Source of the DNA: an uncultured Candidatus Marinamargulisbacteria bacterium
GTDB lineage: Bacteria > Margulisbacteria > Riflemargulisbacteria > GWF2-35-9
NCBI GenBank assembly: GCA_903897765.1
Contig: CAIUCY010000169.1
Span: forward strand, 1 to 41,730
Reading direction: 5' to 3'
DNA length: 41,730 nucleotides
This document shows, piece after piece, positions 2,175 through 31,660 of the stretch; within the stretch, counting starts at the first letter, position 1, and the number at the start of each line of letters is the position of its first letter. The notes under the pieces were generated by a model. That model was not told the origin of the DNA. It did no database searches and saw nothing but the letters and a program-made list of their open reading frames with translations. The position numbers were made by a program, and so were the translations under genes.

Positions 2175-3347
2175 ATGGTTCATAGAATATTGAATATGGA
2201 TAGTTTGAAGGGGGGCGGATCAGCCTTTCTCTTTGGCCCACGCGGTGTGGGCAAAACCTATCTATGCCGAGACTATATTCAACAGTTCCCACTCGTCCAT
2301 AAAGTTGAGCTTTTAAATTATGAAGTTTATTCTCGTTATCTGCGCCAACCCGATCTATTTCGGAAAGAAATTGAAAATAAGCTCGTCGAGGAGAAACCTT
2401 TACTTGTCTTAATTGATGAAGTCCAGAAGCTCCCCTCGTTGCTAGATGAGGTGCATTATTTAATCGAGACATATAAAAACAAAGTAAATTTTATTTTGAC
2501 GGGCTCGAGTGCTCGAAAGTTGAAAAGGGGGGGGGCGAATTTATTGGCGGGACGAGCTTGGTCGCTGAAACTTCATCCTCTTACGCATCGAGAAGTGAAG
2601 ATCGATCTTGAGAAAGCGCTCGTGCATGGGACACTACCTGCGATTTATCTTGATGATAAATTTCCCGCTAGAACCTTAAAGGCCTACGTTGAGACGTATT
2701 TAAAAGAAGAAATATTTCAAGAGGCTTTGGTTCGTCGGGTTGAAGGGTTTTCTCGTTTCATCGAAATCGCGGGACAGATGAATAGTGAGCCCGTAAATTT
2801 TACGAAAATTGCCAGAGGATGTGGCGTGAGCGACCACACCGTTCAAGAGTATTATTCTATATTGCTGGATACCTTGTTGGTATTCCGATTGGATCCTTGG
2901 CATCATTCGGTTCGAAAGCAAATCGCACAAGCACCTAAGTTTTATTTCTTCGATTGTGGCGTTCTAAATGCTATACGACGAGAGTTGAATGTTGAGCTGA
3001 ATGTCCAGTCGTATCGCTATGGGAAATTATTTGAGACCTTTATCGTGCAAGAATTAATTCGCCTCAATGATTACCTTGAAACGGATTATCAGTTCCATTA
3101 TTGGCGAACAAACACAGGGCTTGAGGTGGATGTCGTTTTATCGCGGGGTGCTAAAGAACCGGTGATTGCTATTGAAATAAAATCAAATCATTCGCCTATG
3201 GAACAGGATTTGTCCGCTTTGAGGTCTTTTAAATCAGAGAATGAAAACGCAATCTTGGTTTGTTTTAGCAACACGCCGGAGGCCTATTCTTTAGGTGATA
3301 TCATGATTTACCCTTGGCAAGAAGGGATCAAATCCGTTTTAGGCTAG
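2175..3347 (+). CDS. AAA+ ATPase with DUF4143-like C-terminal region (COG1373-type ATP-binding protein)
   Basis: Walker A FGPRGVGKT and Walker B LLVLIDEVQ. Length and C-terminal pattern (FYFFDCGV, YWRT..G.EVD) are typical of the AAA_14/DUF4143 family. Confidence 0.75.
   Translation: MVHRILNMDSLKGGGSAFLFGPRGVGKTYLCRDYIQQFPLVHKVELLNYEVYSRYLRQPDLFRKEIENKLVEEKPLLVLIDEVQKLPSLLDEVHYLIETYKNKVNFILTGSSARKLKRGGANLLAGRAWSLKLHPLTHREVKIDLEKALVHGTLPAIYLDDKFPARTLKAYVETYLKEEIFQEALVRRVEGFSRFIEIAGQMNSEPVNFTKIARGCGVSDHTVQEYYSILLDTLLVFRLDPWHHSVRKQIAQAPKFYFFDCGVLNAIRRELNVELNVQSYRYGKLFETFIVQELIRLNDYLETDYQFHYWRTNTGLEVDVVLSRGAKEPVIAIEIKSNHSPMEQDLSALRSFKSENENAILVCFSNTPEAYSLGDIMIYPWQEGIKSVLG
2527..2535 (+). repeat. 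G9 homopolymer inside the AAA+ ATPase gene
   Basis: Counted directly (aaa agg ggg ggg gcg = KRGGA). Currently in frame. Confidence 0.9.
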
Positions 3348-9183: not shown

Positions 9184-9567
9184 ATGTCTGCTGTGAATAA
9201 GATCGTGATGATCGGTAATCTGACGACAGATCCTGAGGTTCGTGTTACCACCGAAGGAACGTCCATGACCCGCTTTACGATGTTGATCCAACGAGGCGGG
9301 GTTAATCAGGATAAATCAGACCTTATCCCTGTTGTATGTTGGGGGAAATTAGCGGAACAAGCTAATGACACCTTTCATAAGGGTATGATGGTTGTGGTCG
9401 AGGGACGGATACAAAATCGTTCCTTTGATGACAAAGACGGTCAAAAGGTCTACACCACCGAAGTTATCGCCAATTATGCACGGTTATTAGACGGAAGTGC
9501 CGTGTCTAGTGTCGATAAAGCGGTCGATGAGGCTGAGCCGTATGTCGAAGACGATATTCCGTTTTAG
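9184..9567 (+). CDS. ssb: Single-stranded DNA-binding protein, paralog 1
   Basis: OB-fold pattern (NKIVMIGNLTTDPEVR..., VVCWGKLAE, VVVEGRIQNRSF.DKDG) and acidic C-terminal tip EDDIPF. Confidence 0.9.
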   Translation: MSAVNKIVMIGNLTTDPEVRVTTEGTSMTRFTMLIQRGGVNQDKSDLIPVVCWGKLAEQANDTFHKGMMVVVEGRIQNRSFDDKDGQKVYTTEVIANYARLLDGSAVSSVDKAVDEAEPYVEDDIPF

Positions 9568-9580
9568 GAGAACATGACGA

Positions 9581-9949
9581 ATGTATAATAAAGTATTTTT
9601 AATCGGTAACTTAGCTCGCGACCCCGAAATGCGCTATACAACGGCGGGCATCCCTGTTACCAAGTTCTCCGTTGCCGTGAATCGCCGCGGTGGCAAAGAT
9701 GAAGTGGATTTTTTTAATATTGTCGCTTGGCGTAAGTTAGCCGAGATTTGTGGCGAGTATTTAAGCAAAGGCAAAAAGGTGTCGATCGAAGGTCGTTTAG
9801 AGATCGATACTTATGAAAAAGATGGGAAGCCACGCATCTGGGCGCAAATTATCGCCGATGATGTGCAGATCCTTTCCCGCAAAGACGAAGAGACTAGATC
9901 CGAAGAGCCGTCAAGCAATGTGACGAGCGAAGAAGATGTTCCCTTTTAG
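9581..9949 (+). CDS. ssb: Single-stranded DNA-binding protein, paralog 2
   Basis: OB-fold pattern (NKVFLIGNLARDPEMRYT, IVAWRKLAE, SIEGRLEIDTYEKDG) and acidic C-terminal tip EEDVPF. Confidence 0.9.
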   Translation: MYNKVFLIGNLARDPEMRYTTAGIPVTKFSVAVNRRGGKDEVDFFNIVAWRKLAEICGEYLSKGKKVSIEGRLEIDTYEKDGKPRIWAQIIADDVQILSRKDEETRSEEPSSNVTSEEDVPF

Positions 9950-24074: not shown

Positions 24075-24605
24075 TCAATTATGAAATGATGATGAAGAAA
24101 TTCCCTTTACCCGATACCGAATAACCGTTTTTTGGTTTTTGACATCGGGCATAGTGAGATATTCTTCTTCGTGGTCATCGACTATGTCATAGCCCTGCTC
24201 TTGGATGAAATGATGAAGTTTCGTAATAGTGGGGCCTTCTTCCGAGTAGGGGCCAAGGTGCAAGATCTCAGCTGCCGCGCCACCCGTCAACGTCGTCAGT
24301 TTTACTCGGATATCAGGATCTTTTTGGATAATGTCCGCGTCAGTGACATAGTCAGGGACAACAACGAACCAATGAGCCGTCCATTGGTCTTTGGGTTTTA
24401 AATGGGCGTCTGGCCAGAAGGCTGATAATTTGCCAATAGGCATAACCATGCCTTTGGGTTTATATACCTTCATCTTCGCATAATAAGCCGCGCCATAAAG
24501 GGCTTTCATATAAGGTTCCATGATGACGTTGGGATCCCCGATGGACGTCACACATAATACTTTTCTGTCAGGAAGTTGGGTTAATTGGGGGGCAAAGGCT
24601 TTCAT
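24075..24605 (-). CDS. GyrI-like small-molecule-binding domain protein
   Basis: Pattern LPDRKVLCVTSIGDP..., LTGGAAAEILHLGPY, HEEEYLTMPDVKNQKTVIRYRVK resembles GyrI-like/SOUL-fold proteins. The ORF is open up to 24773, but the homologous part begins at MKAF (24605). Start uncertain. Confidence 0.6.
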   Translation of the reverse strand: MKAFAPQLTQLPDRKVLCVTSIGDPNVIMEPYMKALYGAAYYAKMKVYKPKGMVMPIGKLSAFWPDAHLKPKDQWTAHWFVVVPDYVTDADIIQKDPDIRVKLTTLTGGAAAEILHLGPYSEEGPTITKLHHFIQEQGYDIVDDHEEEYLTMPDVKNQKTVIRYRVKGISSSSFHN

Positions 24606-24631: not shown

Positions 24632-25312
24632 ATGCGCTACAATACCCCCATGATCCTTTACCATGCGCTCTGGCAGATCCTAACGTGGGGTAGGGAGGCA
24701 TTATTTGCCTTACTGCGACCCCGATATTGGCGTTTGTTTTTGGCGTTCCAGTTCGAGTACTTTTTGCATTCATCCTATTACTATGTGGACAAAAATCCCG
24801 AAGAAAATGATGTCTTTGGGTATACCCCCTTTTTTACGGCGGCTCAAATATTGAGGAAGATCCAACGCTGGCAGGGGCGATCTTTACTGGGTGAGCGGTT
24901 GCTCGATCTGGGTAGCGGGGATGGCCGCTTTCTGCTAACAGGGGTGGCAGGGTTTGGGTTGGTAGGGCTGGGGATGGAGCAAAACGAACGACTCGTCGCG
25001 AAAAGCCAAGCGATCACCCATTATTTGCAGATCAAGGCCGAGTTTTTTGATGATGATTTTATGAAAGGGTCGTGGATCGGCTATGAGGTCATTTTTGTCG
25101 CATGGACGACCTTTACGCCCTCGAGAGTAAAGGCGATCACCGACAAGGCCGTCGAGGAGATGGTGCCTGGGTCTTGGCTAGTCACGCTTTCAGAGCCGGC
25201 GCAGTACGAGGGGCTGACGGTCATTGATTCGTTTTCGGCTTGGTTCTCATGGGGCATGAGTCGGGTTTACCTGCATCGACGCTATTGTTGTGAATTGCAA
25301 TCAGATATATAG
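24632..25312 (+). CDS. Class I SAM-dependent methyltransferase
   Basis: Motif I is LLDLGSGDGRFLL. The 3' end (last 25 codons or so) forms the left part of repeat copy A. Confidence 0.7.
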   Translation: MRYNTPMILYHALWQILTWGREALFALLRPRYWRLFLAFQFEYFLHSSYYYVDKNPEENDVFGYTPFFTAAQILRKIQRWQGRSLLGERLLDLGSGDGRFLLTGVAGFGLVGLGMEQNERLVAKSQAITHYLQIKAEFFDDDFMKGSWIGYEVIFVAWTTFTPSRVKAITDKAVEEMVPGSWLVTLSEPAQYEGLTVIDSFSAWFSWGMSRVYLHRRYCCELQSDI

Positions 25313-25326
25313 CTATATTTACCATG
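25232..25326 (+). repeat. att-like repeat, copy A (full length; 3' end of the methyltransferase gene plus spacer plus the hicB ATG)
   Basis: 82 of 94 ungapped positions are identical to copy D by hand alignment (25233-25326 vs 29399-29492). Contains the palindrome CTCATG-GGG-CATGAG at 25246-25260. Confidence 0.85.
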
Positions 25327-25506
25327 ACGCAGACTTATTCGGTGCTAATTGAACGTGATGAGGATGGCTTATTTGTGGCCAAGGTGCCCGATATTCCCGG
25401 ATGTTTTTCTCAAGCTTCAAATCTTAACGATTTGATCCCTCGTATTCGAGAGGCGATAGAACTGTGTTGCCATCATGATATCGAAGTATTCCTGAAGAAT
25501 ATTTAA
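25324..25506 (+). CDS. hicB: HicB-family antitoxin-like protein (UPF0150 N-terminal domain only, probably truncated)
   Basis: YSVLIERDEDGLFVAKVPDIPGCFSQASNLNDLIPRIREAIELC matches the HicB/UPF0150 fold signature. No hicA partner is visible. Confidence 0.7.
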   Translation: MTQTYSVLIERDEDGLFVAKVPDIPGCFSQASNLNDLIPRIREAIELCCHHDIEVFLKNI

Positions 25507-25510
25507 ATCA

Positions 25511-25548
25511 TTTTCGGTATGGTTCTCCTGTGGCCTGAGCCGAGTTTA
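25511..25548 (+). repeat. att-like repeat, copy B (left 38 nt only, diverged)
   Basis: TTTTCGGTATGGTTCTCCTGTGGCCTGAGCCGAGTTTA vs copy A TTTTCGGCTTGGTTCTCATGGGGCATGAGTCGGGTTTA (31 of 38 identical). Starts 5 nt after the hicB stop. Confidence 0.7.
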
Positions 25549-25615
25549 ATCAGTTGATTACAACGTTTACTTTGTCTTACGTTGTGGTATGCTTTTACAT
25601 AAGTGGAGGTGTATT

Positions 25616-25849
25616 ATGAAAAATCATAGCATCACGGTTCGTATTAATGAGACCAATTACAGTCAACTTAAAAACTTAGCGGAGTCAATGGAGCGGTCAA
25701 AGTCTTTTATAATGGAAGATGCCTTAATAAACTATATGGAAGTTAATGCGTGGCAAATTAATCACATAAAGAAAGCTTTGGCGGAGGCGGACGATCCAAA
25801 CACTCCAAGATATACACAGGAAGAAATAGAACGGGACGCTTTAGCTTAA
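25616..25849 (+). CDS. parD: Ribbon-helix-helix antitoxin (ParD/CopG family)
   Basis: MKNHSITVRINETNYSQLKNLAE is an RHH N-terminus. GGAGG lies 6 nt upstream of the ATG. Immediately followed by the parE-like gene. Confidence 0.75.
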   Translation: MKNHSITVRINETNYSQLKNLAESMERSKSFIMEDALINYMEVNAWQINHIKKALAEADDPNTPRYTQEEIERDALA

Positions 25850-25851
25850 TC

Positions 25852-26160
25852 ATGAATATCATATGGCTTAGGTCGGCGAGAGAAGACCTCTTGGCTATTA
25901 AAAGCTTCATCGAAAAAGAAAGTAATATTGAGAACGCTAGGGGGGTATCTCTTAAAATCTCCAAAGCGGCGATGTTGCTACAAGATAGCCCCGGTGCTGG
26001 ACGTCCTGGTCGCGTCAAAAGAACACGAGAGCTTGTCGTGCCCAGTATTCCTTATATCATTGCTTACCGTGTTGTGGGCTCAAGCCTCGAGGTCCTCAGC
26101 ATTTTTCATCAGGCCAGAAAGTGGCCGAATTTGTTTAAAGAAAAGGGGCAGGGGGCATGA
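25852..26160 (+). CDS. parE: Type II toxin, ParE/RelE family
   Basis: WLRSAREDLLAIKSFI..., GRPGRVKRTRELVV..PYIIAYRV....LEVLSIFHQARKWP is a typical ParE pattern. The stop codon lies inside repeat copy C. Confidence 0.8.
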   Translation: MNIIWLRSAREDLLAIKSFIEKESNIENARGVSLKISKAAMLLQDSPGAGRPGRVKRTRELVVPSIPYIIAYRVVGSSLEVLSIFHQARKWPNLFKEKGQGA

Positions 26161-26198
26161 GCAGGGTTTGCGATCATCGGCGTAATTGTCGTTAATTC
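26152..26198 (+). repeat. att-like repeat, copy C (central and right part, diverged)
   Basis: GGGGCATGAGCAGGGTTTGCGATCATCGGCGTAATTGTCGTTAATTC aligns with copy D GGGGCATGAGCAGGGGTTTCGTGCATCGACGCTATTGTCGTGAATTC. Overlaps the parE stop codon. Confidence 0.7.
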
Positions 26199-26202
26199 AA
26201 GT

Positions 26203-27534
26203 CTATGGTTTGTTTGTAAAGCCTAAAAAGGTTCCCTGCTTCGCTTCACTAATGGCTTTTTTGAGAATTTTATGTTCTGCTGAATCAACTTGTACATATT
26301 CTTTGAACCATTCCAATATTTGAAGAATATCACTATTAAAAATAGTGTTGAGTTGGTTAATAAATCCAAAGGTGCGGATCTCGGAATATTCCTTTCGTAT
26401 TGCGGTTGTCTCTGATGTTCTCAATCGATCTTGTTTTTCAGTTTCAGCATCAAGAATGGCTTGTGCCACTTGGATTAAAAGTGGGTTGTTCTCATTATTA
26501 CCATCTAGCAGGGAATATCCCTGATTATCACATACTATTGACTTCTCCGTTTGGATTGACTGAATGGTTCTAATAATGGTTTTAACCATTTGCTTTTGGA
26601 TTTGTGTGGACGTCATTTTCACTACATCCATAATTTCTTTAGCGGCTTCGGGGAGATGTTCTTCGGGGATATTTTTAAAAAGTCCCCAAACAACGTCAAA
26701 GGCATCTTTTTGAATAGAGTTGCCATCCTTGGTCAGCATTGCTTCAACGATTCCGCCAATGACAGCAGTTGTTGTTTCTCCTTTTGCGCTAATGGCAGGA
26801 TAATTCCCCTTAATTCGTTGCAAATATTTTGTTAGGACATTAAATATGGGATCTGCTATATCTGAACGTTCGGATGCCGTACAAAATGATAGCATGTTCT
26901 GAGAAAAAGTATAGAAAGATGGGTAGTCTTTGTTTGTATCTGTTGAAGAACCGATGTTATCGAAGGATATTGAGTCTAATGTGTCATTGCGTTCTTCAAC
27001 TGGCGTGGAAAGTAGGGCAATCGTCGCAATGAGGGGAAGGTTTTCTTTTTTTCCAGTAAAATCTTGACGTTCACTAGTAATTAATCCAGTTGCAAAACCT
27101 GGAAAATTGAATTTGGATTTATCCGTAACCGGCATAAATTCCTTTTGCGCCTCAATGGCGGCTTTACATACATCTATTGCGGTTGAAATAGCTGTATCTA
27201 ATGGGGTATTATCTGTTCTAGTTTTTTCAAGAATAACATGGACAGAAGTAGAGACGACCATATCAATGACAGAAGCTAATAAAGGTTTTTTGGGACTGGG
27301 AATATTCACTTCATTTACAATCTTAGCAATCTCAATAAAAACATCTTTATAATATTTTTTTGGATTTTCGAGAAGAATGTTTGCAAAGCCGATGCAAGTT
27401 GGTCTAGCCAAAGCTATACTGTTTTGATCAATCTTGGGGTATCCATCACCAAATTGAACTGCACGAACCTTTATTATTAATGCCTGTAGTATCTTGTCAG
27501 TTTCATCCATACTCAGAATCTTCTTATTCATCAT
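26203..27534 (-). CDS. Hypothetical protein (443 aa), no recognisable domain
   Basis: Long ORF with AGGAGG just upstream (the second ATG at 27531 has better spacing). AT-rich. Sits inside the TA/Abi island and is divergent from abiEi. Confidence 0.65.
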   Translation of the reverse strand: MMNKKILSMDETDKILQALIIKVRAVQFGDGYPKIDQNSIALARPTCIGFANILLENPKKYYKDVFIEIAKIVNEVNIPSPKKPLLASVIDMVVSTSVHVILEKTRTDNTPLDTAISTAIDVCKAAIEAQKEFMPVTDKSKFNFPGFATGLITSERQDFTGKKENLPLIATIALLSTPVEERNDTLDSISFDNIGSSTDTNKDYPSFYTFSQNMLSFCTASERSDIADPIFNVLTKYLQRIKGNYPAISAKGETTTAVIGGIVEAMLTKDGNSIQKDAFDVVWGLFKNIPEEHLPEAAKEIMDVVKMTSTQIQKQMVKTIIRTIQSIQTEKSIVCDNQGYSLLDGNNENNPLLIQVAQAILDAETEKQDRLRTSETTAIRKEYSEIRTFGFINQLNTIFNSDILQILEWFKEYVQVDSAEHKILKKAISEAKQGTFLGFTNKP

Positions 27535-27644
27535 AACCTCCTAGTTTGTTTTGCTACCACGAATTCATCGTCCGCAATTTTCGTAAATCCCACGCAAAAC
27601 CACCCATGGATTCTGTTGCTTTGTTTGCCAAGGACGGTGCCCAT

Positions 27645-27653
27645 GGGGGGGGG
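27645..27653 (+). repeat. G9 homopolymer in the divergent intergenic region between orf443 and abiEi
   Basis: Counted directly (CCCATGGGGGGGGGCTAG). It lies 111 nt from the orf443 start and 116 nt from the abiEi start. Confidence 0.9.
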
Positions 27654-27768
27654 CTAGCTTTATATACGTTCAGCGGTCGAAGTATAGTTGAGTTTTAAAG
27701 TGTATTGCAAAAGTAAATGTTTTTATTTACCATATTAGTGGAAGTTAAAACATGAGAGCAGGAACAAC

Positions 27769-28476
27769 GTGTTAATTCTTGATAATCAATATGAGGTTTT
27801 CTTTTTTGAGTATTTCAAAAAACAGGGATATTCAAAACAGCAAATGTATCAATTTGTAAAACATAACAAATTTAATAAAAAAGCCTATGGTATATATACC
27901 CTTAAAGGTCAGAATCCTGAACCATTAAGTTATATCGAAGCCTATGAAAGGCAATGCAATAAGCGTGTATATGTTGGGGCATTAAGTGCTTTGCGTTTAC
28001 ACGGTGTTTCCCAAAATATTCCATTTAATACGCGTTACCAGATTTATTATAACGAACAACGAATCAATCGGTGGTTGCTCGATCAAAAAGACTATATATG
28101 GACACGAAACAACTTGTTTAATTCGTCTGTTGGAATAACAAAAAAAAACAATCTGAGCCTATCCTCGCCGGAAAGAGCGATCCTAGAAGCGATATCCCTA
28201 TTGCCGAAACAAGGGGATTTTGAAGAGGTTTATCATACACTGCTTCTGCTGCCATCACTGCGGCCCCAACTATTAATGGACTTGATTTGCGAATGTAAGT
28301 CCATCAAAACAAAACGGTTATTTTTATATATGCTCAAACATGTAAATTTTACGTGGAAATCGAAGCTTGATTTATCAAAAGTTGATATTGGGAAAGGCAT
28401 TCGTCAACTATACCCAGAGGGTAAACTTGATCCCGATTATCACCTCTATGTGCCAGAAATTCATGATGAAGTATAG
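27769..28476 (+). CDS. abiEi: AbiEi-family antitoxin (type IV TA / abortive infection)
   Basis: N-terminal wHTH-like segment ending in KKAYGIYTL, and SPERAILEAISLLP, as in AbiEi proteins. Overlaps the abiEii start. GTG start is uncertain. Confidence 0.7.
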   Translation: MLILDNQYEVFFFEYFKKQGYSKQQMYQFVKHNKFNKKAYGIYTLKGQNPEPLSYIEAYERQCNKRVYVGALSALRLHGVSQNIPFNTRYQIYYNEQRINRWLLDQKDYIWTRNNLFNSSVGITKKNNLSLSSPERAILEAISLLPKQGDFEEVYHTLLLLPSLRPQLLMDLICECKSIKTKRLFLYMLKHVNFTWKSKLDLSKVDIGKGIRQLYPEGKLDPDYHLYVPEIHDEV

Positions 28477-29371
28477 CGAGACCTATCAACGCAAAGTATC
28501 CTTGCTCATAGACATATTGTCACTCATCGACTGGGGTTCTGGATTTGCCTTAAAAGGCGGAACGGCAATCAATCTATTCATCAAGAATTTGCCGCGATTA
28601 TCAGTAGATATTGACCTCGCTTTTTTGCCTTTTATTGATCGACAACAAGATTTGATAAAGATTGAGAGCTTGTTTCTCCAACTCGCTAAGCGACTAAAAG
28701 AGGCGGGTCTGTCAGGAATCCCTCATCTTAATAATGGAACAAAAACCATTACGAGCATGTTGGTCAATAATCGATTTGAGCAAATAAATGTCGAAGCTAA
28801 TTTTATTGCAAAAGGTGCCTTGTTGCCGCCTCAATTATTATCATTATGTGCTTCAGCTGAAAGCGAATTTGAAAAACAATCAGAGGTATTGTGTCTCAAT
28901 AAACAAGAAGTCTATGCTGGAAAAATGAATGCGTTTCTTTCTCGGCAGCATCCACGTGATATATTTGACATGATGGAGTATATCAAAGAACAATCTATTG
29001 CGGACATAATGGATGTCGTTATGATTTATATCCTACAGAACAACCGGCCTTTTCATGAATTAATAAATCCTAACGAAATCGATATTTCTGACGCTTATCA
29101 GCACTCCTTTGCAGGTATGACGCGTGAGACTGTTTCCCTAAATAATTTGCTTGAAGCGCGAACAATGATCCTATCACAGTTCAAAAACAATGTTTCTGCA
29201 AAGCATATCGAATTCTTTATCTCCTGTTTGCGCGGTAACCCCCAATGGAATGCATTCAATTTTGAAATTAAAACGCTGCCTGGGGTTGTATGGAGAATGC
29301 TCAATATTGAGAAAATGCCAAGGCATAAAAATGAAGAAGAAATTGAGCTACTGCTTAAACTCGTGCCCTGA
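28463..29371 (+). CDS. abiEii: Nucleotidyltransferase AbiEii/AbiGii-family toxin
   Basis: ALKGGTAINLF...LPRLSVDIDLAF is the AbiEii NTase signature. I prefer the ATG at 28463 (14-nt overlap with abiEi) over the ORF-track start at 28367. Confidence 0.8.
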   Translation: MMKYSETYQRKVSLLIDILSLIDWGSGFALKGGTAINLFIKNLPRLSVDIDLAFLPFIDRQQDLIKIESLFLQLAKRLKEAGLSGIPHLNNGTKTITSMLVNNRFEQINVEANFIAKGALLPPQLLSLCASAESEFEKQSEVLCLNKQEVYAGKMNAFLSRQHPRDIFDMMEYIKEQSIADIMDVVMIYILQNNRPFHELINPNEIDISDAYQHSFAGMTRETVSLNNLLEARTMILSQFKNNVSAKHIEFFISCLRGNPQWNAFNFEIKTLPGVVWRMLNIEKMPRHKNEEEIELLLKLVP

Positions 29372-29398
29372 TTTTGTGGCCGGTTCGTGGATCGACTA

Positions 29399-29492
29399 TT
29401 TCGGCATGGTTCTCATGGGGCATGAGCAGGGGTTTCGTGCATCGACGCTATTGTCGTGAATTCCACTCAGATATATAGTTATATCTACTATG
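29399..29492 (+). repeat. att-like repeat, copy D (full length, non-coding pseudo-copy of the methyltransferase 3' end, ending at the recN ATG)
   Basis: See copy A. Palindrome at 29412-29426. The recN ATG occupies the position that the hicB ATG occupies after copy A. Confidence 0.85.
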
Positions 29493-31079
29493 CTGCATCG
29501 CCTTGATATTGGGAATTATCTCCTCATCGAAAAGACCACGATCCAATTCCAAGAGGGGTTCCATGTTTTGATCGGTGAATCGGGGGCAGGGAAAAGCCTG
29601 ATCGTTAACATCTTGTGTCTTCCGTTTGCCAAAAGTGTGGGGCCTGAGGTGATCGGCCGATGGGGTGCCGAGGCCGCTATTCATGTTGAGTTCGATGATG
29701 ATCAAGGCGCTCACTATCTCGATATTCGGATCACCAAGTCAAGGACTAACTTTGTCCTCGATGACGAGGCCATTTTGCCCAAAGTCTTGAGAGACTATTG
29801 GAAAACGATTTTCGATGTACATTCTCAAAACGATTTTGACCTGCTTCGTGGAGACCAGTTGAGGGTTCTCGATCGCTTTATGACCAACGATGAAGCCATG
29901 GTCAAAGTCGCTTACGATGAGGCATTCGAGTCGTTTCGAAGTTTAGATGAGAAGATATCAGACCTAAAAAAGAAGATACTTAACACCATGGAACGTGAGT
30001 ATTATGGTTTCCAACTAAAAGAGCTTATGGGCGCCGCTTTAGTCTTGGGGGAGGATGATGACTGTTTGGCTAGGCTTCGTTTAGGTCGCGATCATGAGAA
30101 GTTCCAAACCAAAATAGATGCTGTGAAAGTAAAGATGGACGATCTTTCAGATGCGATCACCGCGGCTGAGATGGCATGGGATAGCCTTAAAAGGATGGAC
30201 GAAGATCTAGGTGGCGCGGACTATTTTAAGATGATGATCCAAGCCTCATCTGACGCAACATGGGATTTAGCCAAGCGTTATGATTCGGTCGAGATCCCCG
30301 ATGCGCGTGAGCTTGCGATCATCGAAGCTCGATTAGAGTTCCTAGACGACCTCAAGCGAAAATATAAACGTTTGTTGCCGGAGTTGATACAGTATCGAGA
30401 TGAGCTTTCTCTTCAACTTAATCGGCAAGAAGAATATGAATTCGATCTCCATACTCTCGTTGTCGAGAAAACCCAAAAAGAAGCGAACCTACTTTCGATC
30501 GCAATAAAACTGACAGATGTGCGCCAGTCTGTTGCCAAACGTTTAGTGAGTCAACTTCAACAATATATGGCAGGGTTAAAATTGCCTAAGGCGGAGTTTG
30601 TCCCTTCGTTTCAAACAAAAGACAGACCCGATGCGTCTGGGCTTGATCGTTTTGAGTTTTTGGTTCGAGTAAATGTTGGAAGTGCTTTCCATGCCATTAC
30701 ACGTTTGTCGGGGGGTGAAACCTCGCGTATTATGCTTGCGATCAAAGCGGCCTTGATGGATGCCTCGGCGATACGGACCTATTGTTTTGATGAAATTGAT
30801 GTTGGGGTGAGTGGTGATGTGGCAACACGTATGGCCGAATTGATGGCTAAAATATCCAAAAAGAGACAGGTCATCGCGGTGACACATCTTCCTATGGTAG
30901 CGGCTTTAGCCGATCATCTCTACAGTGTCGAAAAGTCCTTTACGGACTCACAGACCTCCTCTTCTGTTCGTATGATCCGCTTGGCTTCAGACCGAGAAAA
31001 TGTTTTGGGACGACTGTTGTCTGATCAGCCCAATGAGGCGACTACAGAGTTTGTTCGATCCCTAAAAGATCACGCCTGA
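29490..31079 (+). CDS. recN: DNA repair protein RecN
   Basis: MLHRLDIGNYLLIEK..., Walker A GESGAGKS, long coiled coil, signature LSGGETSRIMLA, Walker B YCFDEIDVG. Confidence 0.9.
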   Translation: MLHRLDIGNYLLIEKTTIQFQEGFHVLIGESGAGKSLIVNILCLPFAKSVGPEVIGRWGAEAAIHVEFDDDQGAHYLDIRITKSRTNFVLDDEAILPKVLRDYWKTIFDVHSQNDFDLLRGDQLRVLDRFMTNDEAMVKVAYDEAFESFRSLDEKISDLKKKILNTMEREYYGFQLKELMGAALVLGEDDDCLARLRLGRDHEKFQTKIDAVKVKMDDLSDAITAAEMAWDSLKRMDEDLGGADYFKMMIQASSDATWDLAKRYDSVEIPDARELAIIEARLEFLDDLKRKYKRLLPELIQYRDELSLQLNRQEEYEFDLHTLVVEKTQKEANLLSIAIKLTDVRQSVAKRLVSQLQQYMAGLKLPKAEFVPSFQTKDRPDASGLDRFEFLVRVNVGSAFHAITRLSGGETSRIMLAIKAALMDASAIRTYCFDEIDVGVSGDVATRMAELMAKISKKRQVIAVTHLPMVAALADHLYSVEKSFTDSQTSSSVRMIRLASDRENVLGRLLSDQPNEATTEFVRSLKDHA

Positions 31080-31124: not shown

Positions 31125-31156
31125 GAGGGGGTAAAAGGGGAGGAGGGCGTATCGAT

Positions 31157-31660
31157 ATGTCAAACACTTTGGATAAATTACCGGTGGTTCAGAACAATCA
31201 AAATCTAGTCGTATCCGACGAGGAAGTTTTCCAGTTAGTTACTTTTTTTCTGGGTGGCGAAGTTTATGGTATTGATATTTTGGCCGTTCAAGAAATTATT
31301 CGTATGCAAAATATCACGGATGTTCCCCGAACAGCCGATTATGTAGAAGGGGTTATTAACCTTCGAGGTAAAGTGATCCCTATTATTGATCTCCGGAAGC
31401 GTTTTAATCTGGTTGCTTCTGAGGAAACAAAAGACTCCCGCATCATTGTCGTTGAGATCCATCATAAAATTATTGGTATGATCGTGGATGGCGTGTCCAA
31501 AGTGATCCGTCTAAATGCTGATTTAGTTGAACCCCCATCTTTAATTGTCGGCGGGGCCGATTACAATTACATCAAAGGAGTGGGCCGAATAAATGATCAG
31601 CTTGTGATTCTCTTAGATATTGAAAAGATAAACGACGTCCCAGCGATGGTCGTGGTTTAG
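31157..31660 (+). CDS. cheW: Chemotaxis coupling protein CheW
   Basis: FFLGGEVYGIDILAVQEI...GVINLRGKVIPIIDLRKRF is the CheW domain signature. Confidence 0.9.
   Translation: MSNTLDKLPVVQNNQNLVVSDEEVFQLVTFFLGGEVYGIDILAVQEIIRMQNITDVPRTADYVEGVINLRGKVIPIIDLRKRFNLVASEETKDSRIIVVEIHHKIIGMIVDGVSKVIRLNADLVEPPSLIVGGADYNYIKGVGRINDQLVILLDIEKINDVPAMVVV

Follow-up and report, generated by a model that had tools for sequence, protein, structure and literature searches.

The DNA considered here (the window) is a stretch of 41,730 nt, contig CAIUCY010000169.1, from an uncultured Candidatus Marinamargulisbacteria bacterium whose lineage comes from stratified freshwater-lake metagenomes. Its subject is an island between a methyltransferase-like gene and recN, in which small blocks with toxin–antitoxin (TA) and abortive infection (Abi) genes alternate with copies, named A to D, of one repeat. 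From left to right, the array comprises the methyltransferase-like target gene with copy A at its end, a hicB-like gene, copy B, parDE, copy C, orf443 together with abiEi/abiEii, copy D and recN. The GC content of the insert (25313-29398) is 0.386, compared with 0.454 in the left flank and 0.421 in the right flank, and its composition, judged by this figure, is foreign. An earlier reading of the bare sequence (the original prediction) had described an AT-rich insert split by repeats into hicB, parDE and orf443 plus abiE, and this description is borne out. Further copies of the repeat and a recombinase were searched for in the window and in related contigs, those of the same species being found by exact-protein look-ups. 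These relatives comprise a same-species contig (L001), two contigs of a sister species (L142 and L143; L003 is the same sequence as L142), two more distant relatives (L144 and L151) and a JGI contig of the same strain group as the window (L140).

The left border of the island is formed by the target gene (24632-25312, forward strand), a core gene outside the island that encodes a conserved 226-aa methyltransferase-like protein with the motif LLDLGSGDG. The 'methyltransferase' label that it received earlier comes solely from sub-threshold Pfam and NCBIfam matches around this motif (E 0.04-0.16). Its orthologues are syntenic, after alaS, a small open reading frame (ORF) and YtxH, in L142/L143, L144 and L151. 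The right border of the hotspot is the core gene recN (29490-31079, forward strand), which encodes a RecN-like ATPase of the SMC family (Pfam SMC_N; homologues are named RecN by their sources), and the recN-cheW-cheA synteny is kept in all relatives.

The repeat unit, of about 95 nt, consists of the last 26 codons of the target gene, the stop, an 11-nt spacer and an ATG. Copy A (25233-25331, forward strand) is the attL-like copy and holds the functional last 26 codons of the gene, its TAG stop (25310-25312), the spacer and the hicB ATG; the structure had been correctly described, with a spacer of 12 nt that measures 11 nt. Copy D (29399-29497, forward strand), the attR-like copy, is a displaced pseudo 3' end with its stop at the equal relative position, followed by the recN ATG. 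A and D share 86% identity over 99 nt (82 of 94 positions by blastn, the count also given in the original prediction), and their longest perfect identity is 20 nt. The recN ATG (29490) is placed in D as the hicB ATG (25324) is in A, the two being exactly 4,166 nt apart, which equals the repeat offset.

The inner copies are partial and more diverged. Copy B (25511-25548, forward strand) represents the left and central part of the repeat, with 81% identity between its bases 25512-25547 and the left 36 nt of A and D. Copy C (26149-26203, forward strand) represents the central and right part, with 73-80% identity to 55 nt of A and D, and supplies the parE stop (TGA, 26158-26160). All four copies were recovered by repeat finding in the window. 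Furthermore, an nhmmer profile built from three full-length copies only (A, D and the sister-species copy) picked up B at E=9.7e-7 and C at E=3.6e-7, so the earlier doubt as to whether B and C are significantly similar to the full copies (E about 1e-6 and 4e-7) falls away. Pattern searches for the repeat gave 0 chance matches in shuffled sequence, and a profile from all junction copies found nothing further above noise in the 41.7-kb window. The four-copy repeat is real and statistically solid.

The repeat has a coding origin, which, like the copies themselves, is observed directly. Translated in the frame of the target gene, each partial copy yields a gene-like C-terminus: B reads FSVWFSCGLSRV and C reads WGMSRVCDHRRNCR, both followed by a stop, as is FSVWFSCGLSRVNLQAILS in B1, a copy in L001, and X, a copy in L142, reads ..CRVYLQRCRD. 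Copy D reads ISAWFSWGMSRGFVHRRYCREFHSDI across the repeat, ending in ..FSWGMSRGFVHRRYCREFHSDI with its stop at the same position as that of the target gene. The orthologous proteins end in the same conserved peptide, ..AWFSWGMSKVYIHRRQP in L144 (71% identical) and ..GLFSWGKTDIYIQRKI in L151. To judge by these translations, the copies are surrogate or displaced ends of the target gene and not a free-standing motif, and the independent att-like motif of the original prediction gives way to the coding 3' end of a gene.

The relation of D to the target gene extends beyond the repeat. The 30 nt upstream of D (29369-29398) match the interior of the target gene (25054-25083) at 24 of 30 positions, a score reached by 0 of 5000 shuffles, and other 30-mers of the island reach at most 19. 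This internal relic (29369-29398, forward strand) reads FVAGSWIDY against FMKGSWIGY in the gene (25058-25084); between it and D, 149 nt of the gene have been deleted. Because the upstream bases match the gene interior, D is what is left of a gene fragment at least 250 nt long, with a 149-nt internal deletion, and what had been noted as a sharp start of the repeat at TTTCGG is, on this alignment, the endpoint of that deletion. The junction alignment also reveals a compensating +1/-1 indel pair in D (GGGGTTTCGTG versus GGGTTTAYNTG). The view of D as a displaced pseudo-copy is upheld, with the longer 3' fragment and its deletion added; the loss of reading frame once ascribed to it is not, the frame being open over the repeat.

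The cargo of the insert begins with a HicB-like protein of 60 aa (cassette 1; 25324-25506, forward strand; Pfam HicB_lk_antitox, E=6.9e-10, profile positions 1-47 of 123), which comprises the N-terminal domain only and whose gene is duplicated in strain L001. No hicA partner lies beside it, and a full HicAB system, with HicA and a full-length HicB carrying a DNA-binding domain, was not found there; the 'hicB' call is right for the N-terminal domain and wrong for a complete HicAB module. Cassette 2 contains a ribbon-helix-helix antitoxin of the RelB/ParD-like type (25616-25849, forward strand; Pfam RHH_1, E=3.4e-4), with its own GGAGG ribosome-binding site, which also matches an NCBIfam RelB-like family at E=1.4e-7, under the curated cutoff, and is 77 aa long in public assemblies. 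It is followed, after a 2-nt gap, by the ParE toxin gene (25852-26160, forward strand; Pfam ParE_toxin, E=4.9e-15), the stop codon of which lies inside copy C, and the antitoxin upstream of ParE makes the pair a type II ParDE module.

Cassette 3 comprises orf443 on the reverse strand (3a, 26203-27534) and an AbiE pair on the forward strand (3b). AbiEi, an antitoxin and transcriptional regulator (27769-28476; Pfam AbiEi_3, E=4.5e-28; PADLOC AbiEi, E=1.7e-50), precedes the nucleotidyltransferase toxin AbiEii (28427-29371, a 314-aa gene call; Pfam AbiEii, E=1.7e-24; PADLOC, E=4.6e-84), and the order and overlap of the two genes are those of an AbiE system (type IV TA, abortive infection). The orf443 product is an orphan, predicted to be all-helical, with no match in Pfam, NCBIfam or PADLOC. 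Searches among 5.8 billion and 1.84 billion proteins returned essentially itself only (in the latter set, of representative proteins, itself and two marginal matches), and its single-sequence AlphaFold2 model, all-helical with a predicted local distance difference test (pLDDT) score of 52, is not interpretable. The idea that it might be a hidden recombinase was dropped on these grounds: no family match, orphan status in both large searches and an uninterpretable model. It stands back-to-back with abiEi/abiEii and could be a defence partner. Overall, the predicted gene content (hicB, parDE, orf443 and abiE) was confirmed by Pfam, NCBIfam and PADLOC, with the reservations already made for hicB and for the methyltransferase.

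The content of the site differs within the species. Over 5 kb of the left flank, L001 and the window are 99.96% identical; L001 carries an extra unit of 1,534 bp, composed of a Fic gene (366 aa) and a second hicB, the ends of which fall inside repeats; its order is A, hicB, B1, Fic, A', hicB, B2, parDE, C and orf443. The two 285-nt hicB segments are identical to each other within each strain, and both of their edges lie inside the repeat, the left one between G and TCGGGTTT and the right one after CCTGTGG. The window type and the Fic type both recur across many independent assemblies of the same species. The 285-nt exact repeat is longer than the assemblers' k-mers, and the Fic/hicB polymorphism is read at the assembly level. 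Contigs with the order Fic-hicB-Fic (L146 and a 1,662-bp ENA contig) were considered as a possible excised circle and discarded, given that the same loop is expected from a 285-nt exact repeat in a de Bruijn graph.

In the sister species (L142/L143), recN is 86% identical, the target gene is about 83% identical at the nucleotide level, and the flanking synteny is equal. Its array starts with the target gene and a full copy, HEPN-MNT at the position of the hicB ATG and the partial copy X, and continues with a 5' stub of orf443 and the region upstream of it, a lone BrnA-like gene and TTTCGGT fused to the recN ATG. The start of orf443 and its upstream region form a conserved block of about 140 nt (27503-27645), which is 84.5% identical by blastn to L003 1689-1830 (L142 9470-9590); this is about equal to the neighbouring coding gene (83%), though orf443 is deleted in the sister species. 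A structured RNA was not detected in this block (Rfam empty, fold z-scores unremarkable). Homology with the sister species stops at about 27645, a breakpoint without a repeat copy. Additionally, the bases after the MNT stop in L142 (9345-9362), GAGAATATTCAATCGATT, resemble the hicB 3' end and the next bases, GAAGAATATTTAAATCATT (window 25494-25510); this very short segment may be a relic of a hicB cassette.

The more distant relatives L144 (recN 72%) and L151 (recN 37%) contain zero cassettes and a single copy, with the order methyltransferase-like gene, NAD kinase, recN, and this order is, on the sequences compared, the ancestral state. The empty state had been predicted to be a direct adjacency of the methyltransferase gene and recN, which was not seen, with NAD kinase standing between them in both contigs. 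The intervals compared are 729-1730 of L144 and 9146-10000 of L151, which hold the NAD kinase gene (ppnK), and 25313-29489 of the window; the gene is absent from the site in the window and the sister species, and from the whole 41.7-kb window. To judge from these positions, the NAD kinase, presumably essential, must have been moved or replaced in the cassette-bearing lineage.

The cassette differences between strains and species, the cassette-free state and the deletions are direct observations. The expectation that relatives would carry different cassettes between the repeats came true (Fic and hicB in L001; HEPN-MNT and a BrnA-like gene in L142). Since the site is variable within the species and between sister species, and cassette-free outside, the situation is the opposite of an identical arrangement fixed in all relatives, which had been named as the contrary outcome. 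These data support that blocks with TA and Abi cargo sit at a variable insertion hotspot between two core genes.

An artefact of assembly has to be considered at this point, as the window is a metagenome-assembled contig, which could be chimeric or collapsed, and the window type is readable from the graph of the Fic type by skipping the 285-nt repeat loop. Such an origin is scarcely credible. The junctions recur in independent ENA, JGI and Logan assemblies, the array of the sister species was assembled independently twice (L142, L143), and the four-copy structure does not come from a collapsed repeat because A-D differ from one another.

A second alternative arises from the right part of the repeat. 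In D, it contains a promoter-like sequence, TTGTCG-17-TATAGT (29451-29479, forward strand), which is a consensus match only and whose -10 element overlaps the pseudo stop. An AT-rich palindrome, AGATATA-N4-TATATCT, overlaps this promoter-like region, and the ATG comes 10-11 nt later without a Shine-Dalgarno sequence. The same promoter-like hexamers are present in the full copy of the sister species, L142_A (regions: window 29451-29488 and 25285-25322, L142 8589-8626). These features of the right part may serve as a promoter/operator of recN, or as a signal for translational coupling that passes to the first cassette gene.

A broader claim would be that the repeat as a whole is a regulatory or dispersed element unrelated to the arrival of genes, either similar to repetitive extragenic palindromic (REP) sequences or miniature inverted-repeat transposable elements (MITEs) or a duplicated recN promoter-operator. 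The hexamers and the AT-rich palindrome just upstream of the ATG are in line with this, as is the far better preservation of D than of B or C. We regard it as very unlikely. The copies are confined to the locus, both in the window and in a 27-nt pattern scan of JGI metagenome contigs (two contigs, both this locus), and the repeat codes for the end of the upstream gene's protein, which is conserved in distant relatives. Moreover, B and C have no promoter-like part, recN of the sister species has lost the whole repeat, and the hairpin typical of REP elements is absent. A scan of reference genomes with an 18-nt degenerate pattern produced at least 120 chance matches, none of those listed being related to the window by blastn. 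The generic dispersed REP-like element that the original prediction had put forward as its refutation was seen neither in the window nor in the JGI metagenome contigs.

The alignment of all copies shows how the junctions are built, each copy pairing left and right parts of unequal extent. Both parts are present in A and D; B and B1 consist of the left part with little of the right, and A' of the right part alone. C joins 13 nt of left sequence to 33 nt of right sequence, and X preserves portions of each. In the profile search, B, C, B1, A' and X are all significant. The sole segment common to every junction copy (A, A', B, B1, C, X and D) lies at 25261-25269 (forward strand) and is a candidate crossover region. 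This candidate core, which is about 9 nt long and reads YMGGGTTTA where the copies are cleanest, follows directly after the right arm of the palindrome described below, and the left edge of the 1,534-bp polymorphic unit and of the 285-nt duplication falls exactly at it. Junctions of this make-up resemble hybrid att sites left by serial integration, and we infer that crossover took place near 25261-25269 rather than at the palindrome.

The palindrome itself, CTCATG-GGG-CATGAG, is located at 25246-25260 in A, where it encodes S-W-G-M-S, and at 29412-29426 in D. It is perfect in A and D, as had been described. Contrary to the earlier description, it is not common to all copies: B reads CTCCTGTGGCCTGAG, C has the right arm only, the functional copy of the sister species (L142_A) shows CCTGAG and ..GGGGCCTGAG in this region, and it is not conserved in B1 either. 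The palindrome was rejected as a recognition or binding site. It is a poor candidate because it is not conserved across the copies, and no compensatory changes were seen.

The reading that we favour, with a confidence slightly better than even, is that small integrative elements accumulated in tandem at the target gene's 3' end (accretion) and have decayed to recombinase-less remnants resembling cis-mobilizable elements (CIMEs), which keep only addictive or defence cargo. Small integrative elements with an attP mimicking the gene tail would recombine with the 3' end of the target gene. Each integration would provide a new C-terminus and stop (the attL side, now A), and the old tail would be pushed downstream as a non-functional direct repeat (the attR side). 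At least three tandem events would build the succession of A, hicB, B, parDE, C, orf443 with abiE, D and recN. The elements would then decay by deletion and lose their mobility genes, leaving the att scars and the cargo that is hard to lose or useful (ParDE, AbiE, HEPN-MNT and Fic), and the array would go on rearranging through recombination between copies. The insertions would have been made by a site-specific recombinase, encoded elsewhere or since lost.

The locus has several features of a CIME-type island. The island is flanked by directly repeated copies of the target's 3' end, with the gene left intact and A completing the 226-aa ORF, and internal copies separate the modules, save where orf443 adjoins abiE. 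Relatives differ in which modules they possess, and in the cassette-free L144 and L151 NAD kinase occupies the space between the core genes. An associated site-specific recombinase was not found in the window or related contigs, and a CIME is by definition without one. Decay can be seen in the 149-nt deletion in D, the loss of orf443 in L142 and the recN-proximal copy of L142, which has shrunk to TTTCGGT-ATG. The core idea of the original prediction, a TA/Abi hotspot created by insertions that recurred at a single site where a housekeeping gene ends, survives, and the content does vary at the site.

A number of results count against accretion followed by decay. No integrase, recombinase or transposase is encoded in the 41.7-kb window, which confirms the absence of a recombinase noted earlier, nor on any related contig examined. 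An attP-bearing element was not found among IMG/VR viral contigs with three DNA patterns and the Fic and AbiEii proteins, the first DNA pattern giving 15 chance matches, unrelated by blastn, and the other four scans nothing. Neither an empty site nor a circular junction has been demonstrated, and no excision product was found. The profile search detected no repeat copy at the orf443/abiE boundary, so not every rearrangement used the repeat. Some junctions are half-sites, A' being without the left part and B nearly without the right, and the palindrome is unconserved. A, D and the sister-species copy lie at equal distances from one another (27/29 for the left part, 55-57/66 for the right), so a foreign attP and an old local duplication are not distinguishable by divergence; the 73-81% identity of the inner copies fits neutral decay of local duplications as well as it fits a foreign origin. 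Finally, RecA-dependent recombination explains the sole within-species polymorphism equally well.

Two further candidates were examined at the locus and rejected. A Xer/dif site (28 bp, with two 11-bp arms, inner ..ATAA / TTAT.. and a 6-bp centre) was not found by regex scans of 25200-29520 on both strands, and a fifth degenerate copy at 27637-27690, suspected by eye, was undetected by either profile even at E<100.

Homologous recombination alone is a possible account of the array, although clearly a weaker candidate. DNA with homology to the gene tail would enter by a RecA-dependent single crossover of the Campbell type, duplicating the stretch, and unequal crossing-over and deletion would reshuffle the result, with neither a dedicated recombinase nor an att site involved. 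The within-species polymorphism is bounded by two identical 285-nt segments, which provide ample homology, and a deletion between them gives exactly the window arrangement. D stems from at least 250 nt of the gene, which exceeds the usual length of att sites, and both the lack of a recombinase in the window and related contigs and the heterogeneous extents of the junction copies agree with this account. On the other hand, all junctions share a segment of only about 9 nt, and copies with a longest A/D identity of 20 nt and an inner identity of 73-81% are poor RecA substrates. Homologous recombination also leaves unexplained why unrelated cargoes in two species hit one point of the tail with the frame restored.

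An active, integron-like cassette platform, the recombinase of which acts in trans, is unlikely. In it, small blocks such as the 285-bp hicB unit would be excised as circles and reinserted at the tail or at an internal copy, and the first cassette would be expressed from resident signals. The hicB unit (right part, hicB, left part) does occur twice in L001 with identical ends, after the target gene and between Fic and parDE; the first gene after a full right part is always at the same ATG (hicB, HEPN or recN), and the right part has promoter-like hexamers. However, there is neither an attC-like folded site nor an integrase, two-gene cassettes and cassettes with their own ribosome-binding sites are present, one of them on the opposite strand, several junctions are without half of the site, and tandem integration of related elements or homologous recombination explains the hicB duplication equally well. 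Folding of single-stranded DNA (A and D on both strands, B and C on the top strand) gave a local 6-bp stem only and no attC-type hairpin, with z-scores of 0.2, -0.02, -2.2, -2.1, -0.7 and -0.2, in agreement with the earlier remark that canonical attC features are missing. No intI with attI and the promoter Pc was found either, the window being free of integrase. The integron-like interpretation is not sustained by these results, namely the missing hairpin and integrase, the two-gene cassettes and the one on the opposite strand.

Its boldest version is decidedly improbable. The tail of a housekeeping gene would receive the insertions of an integron-like system that has no attC hairpins, where a recombinase in trans shuttles tiny cassettes (down to 285 bp) at the core of about 9 nt, each with a surrogate gene tail and with its first gene at the ATG of the core gene. 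If true, the first cassette gene would inherit the expression signals of the downstream core gene.

Accretion and decay of integrative elements, the preferred reading, has known precedents. For CIMEs, a route in three steps has been described: an element integrates, it decays while retaining an att site, and a new element is accreted there (PMC5704250). In the PAISt island at bacA of Streptomyces turgidiscabies, three copies of the bacA 3' end, each with the 8-bp palindrome TTCATGAA, delimit modules that excise separately (PMC4057263). As in CIMEs (ICESt1/CIME at fda of Streptococcus thermophilus) and PAISt, direct repeats here duplicate the 3' end of an intact target gene, and internal copies split an island whose modules are gained and lost between strains. 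Decayed CIMEs without integration genes likewise keep att scars (PMC5704250), and the short palindrome inside the 3'-end copy recalls PAISt, here perfect in A and D only. In contrast to both, the present modules measure 0.28-3.2 kb rather than tens to hundreds of kb and the cargo is only TA, Abi and Fic; integrase and transfer genes are in no variant seen, several junctions are half-sites, and the array is known from sequence and not from excision. Also new in comparison with these systems are the gene targeted and the host lineage, that of an uncultured freshwater bacterium.

Tandem islands at ssrA in Dehalococcoides (PMC3146451) and the tycheposon arrays of Prochlorococcus, which leave partial-tRNA remnants (bioRxiv 10.1101/2020.12.28.424599), share with this locus serial integration that pushes older elements inwards, leaving partial repeats and degenerate remnants, and are also hotspots of strain-level variation. 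At this locus, by contrast, a protein gene is targeted at its coding end, not an RNA gene, Rfam and tRNA scans of the window being empty for both tRNA and transfer-messenger RNA (tmRNA), and there is no integration module with a DsiB-type serine or a tyrosine recombinase. Chromosomal integrons and clusters of attC sites lacking integron-integrases (CALINs) resemble the array in their short cassettes parted by a recurring site, the prominence of TA genes and a first cassette behind resident expression signals. They differ from it in that the repeat here is linear coding sequence of a neighbour gene instead of a folding imperfect-palindrome attC, intI, attI and Pc are missing, one gene is encoded on the other strand and the cassettes bring ribosome-binding sites of their own.

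Integrase-free defence and TA hotspots between core genes have been catalogued in pan-genome studies of E. coli and Pseudomonas. The present locus is like them in its variable defence/TA content between two core genes and the lack of on-site mobility genes, and unlike them in that the blocks keep a recognisable scar of the target gene end, hinting at their route of arrival. Such hotspots are often without mobility genes, which usually leaves the arrival of their content to guesswork. A readable scar of the target tail on the blocks ties an integrase-free islet to serial integration followed by decay. It also fits the idea that addictive or protective modules survive as mobile elements erode, and it offers a concrete candidate core near 25261-25269 in a freshwater lineage whose co-occurring strains differ exactly there. 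No new mechanism is revealed, the pattern matching the known CIME and accretion biology of streptococci, Streptomyces, Dehalococcoides and Prochlorococcus, and the case is unusual mainly for the small size and the cargo-only nature of its modules.

Several observations were made outside the island. Upstream of the target gene, the window has a GyrI-like gene (24075-24605, reverse strand), in place of which L142 has an unrelated 124-aa ORF and which L151 lacks, so there may be a second, smaller variable spot on the left of the target gene. On the right, L140, otherwise 99.6-100% identical to the window, is without 97 nt (near its position 853; window 31130-31226) flanked by GAGG microhomology, a deletion by which cheW loses its ribosome-binding site, its start codon and roughly its first 23 codons. 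Further away, two tandem genes for single-strand-binding proteins (9184-9567 and 9581-9949) lie between rpsF and rplI, and an AAA_14 / DUF4143 ATPase gene (2175-3347) is found among housekeeping genes.

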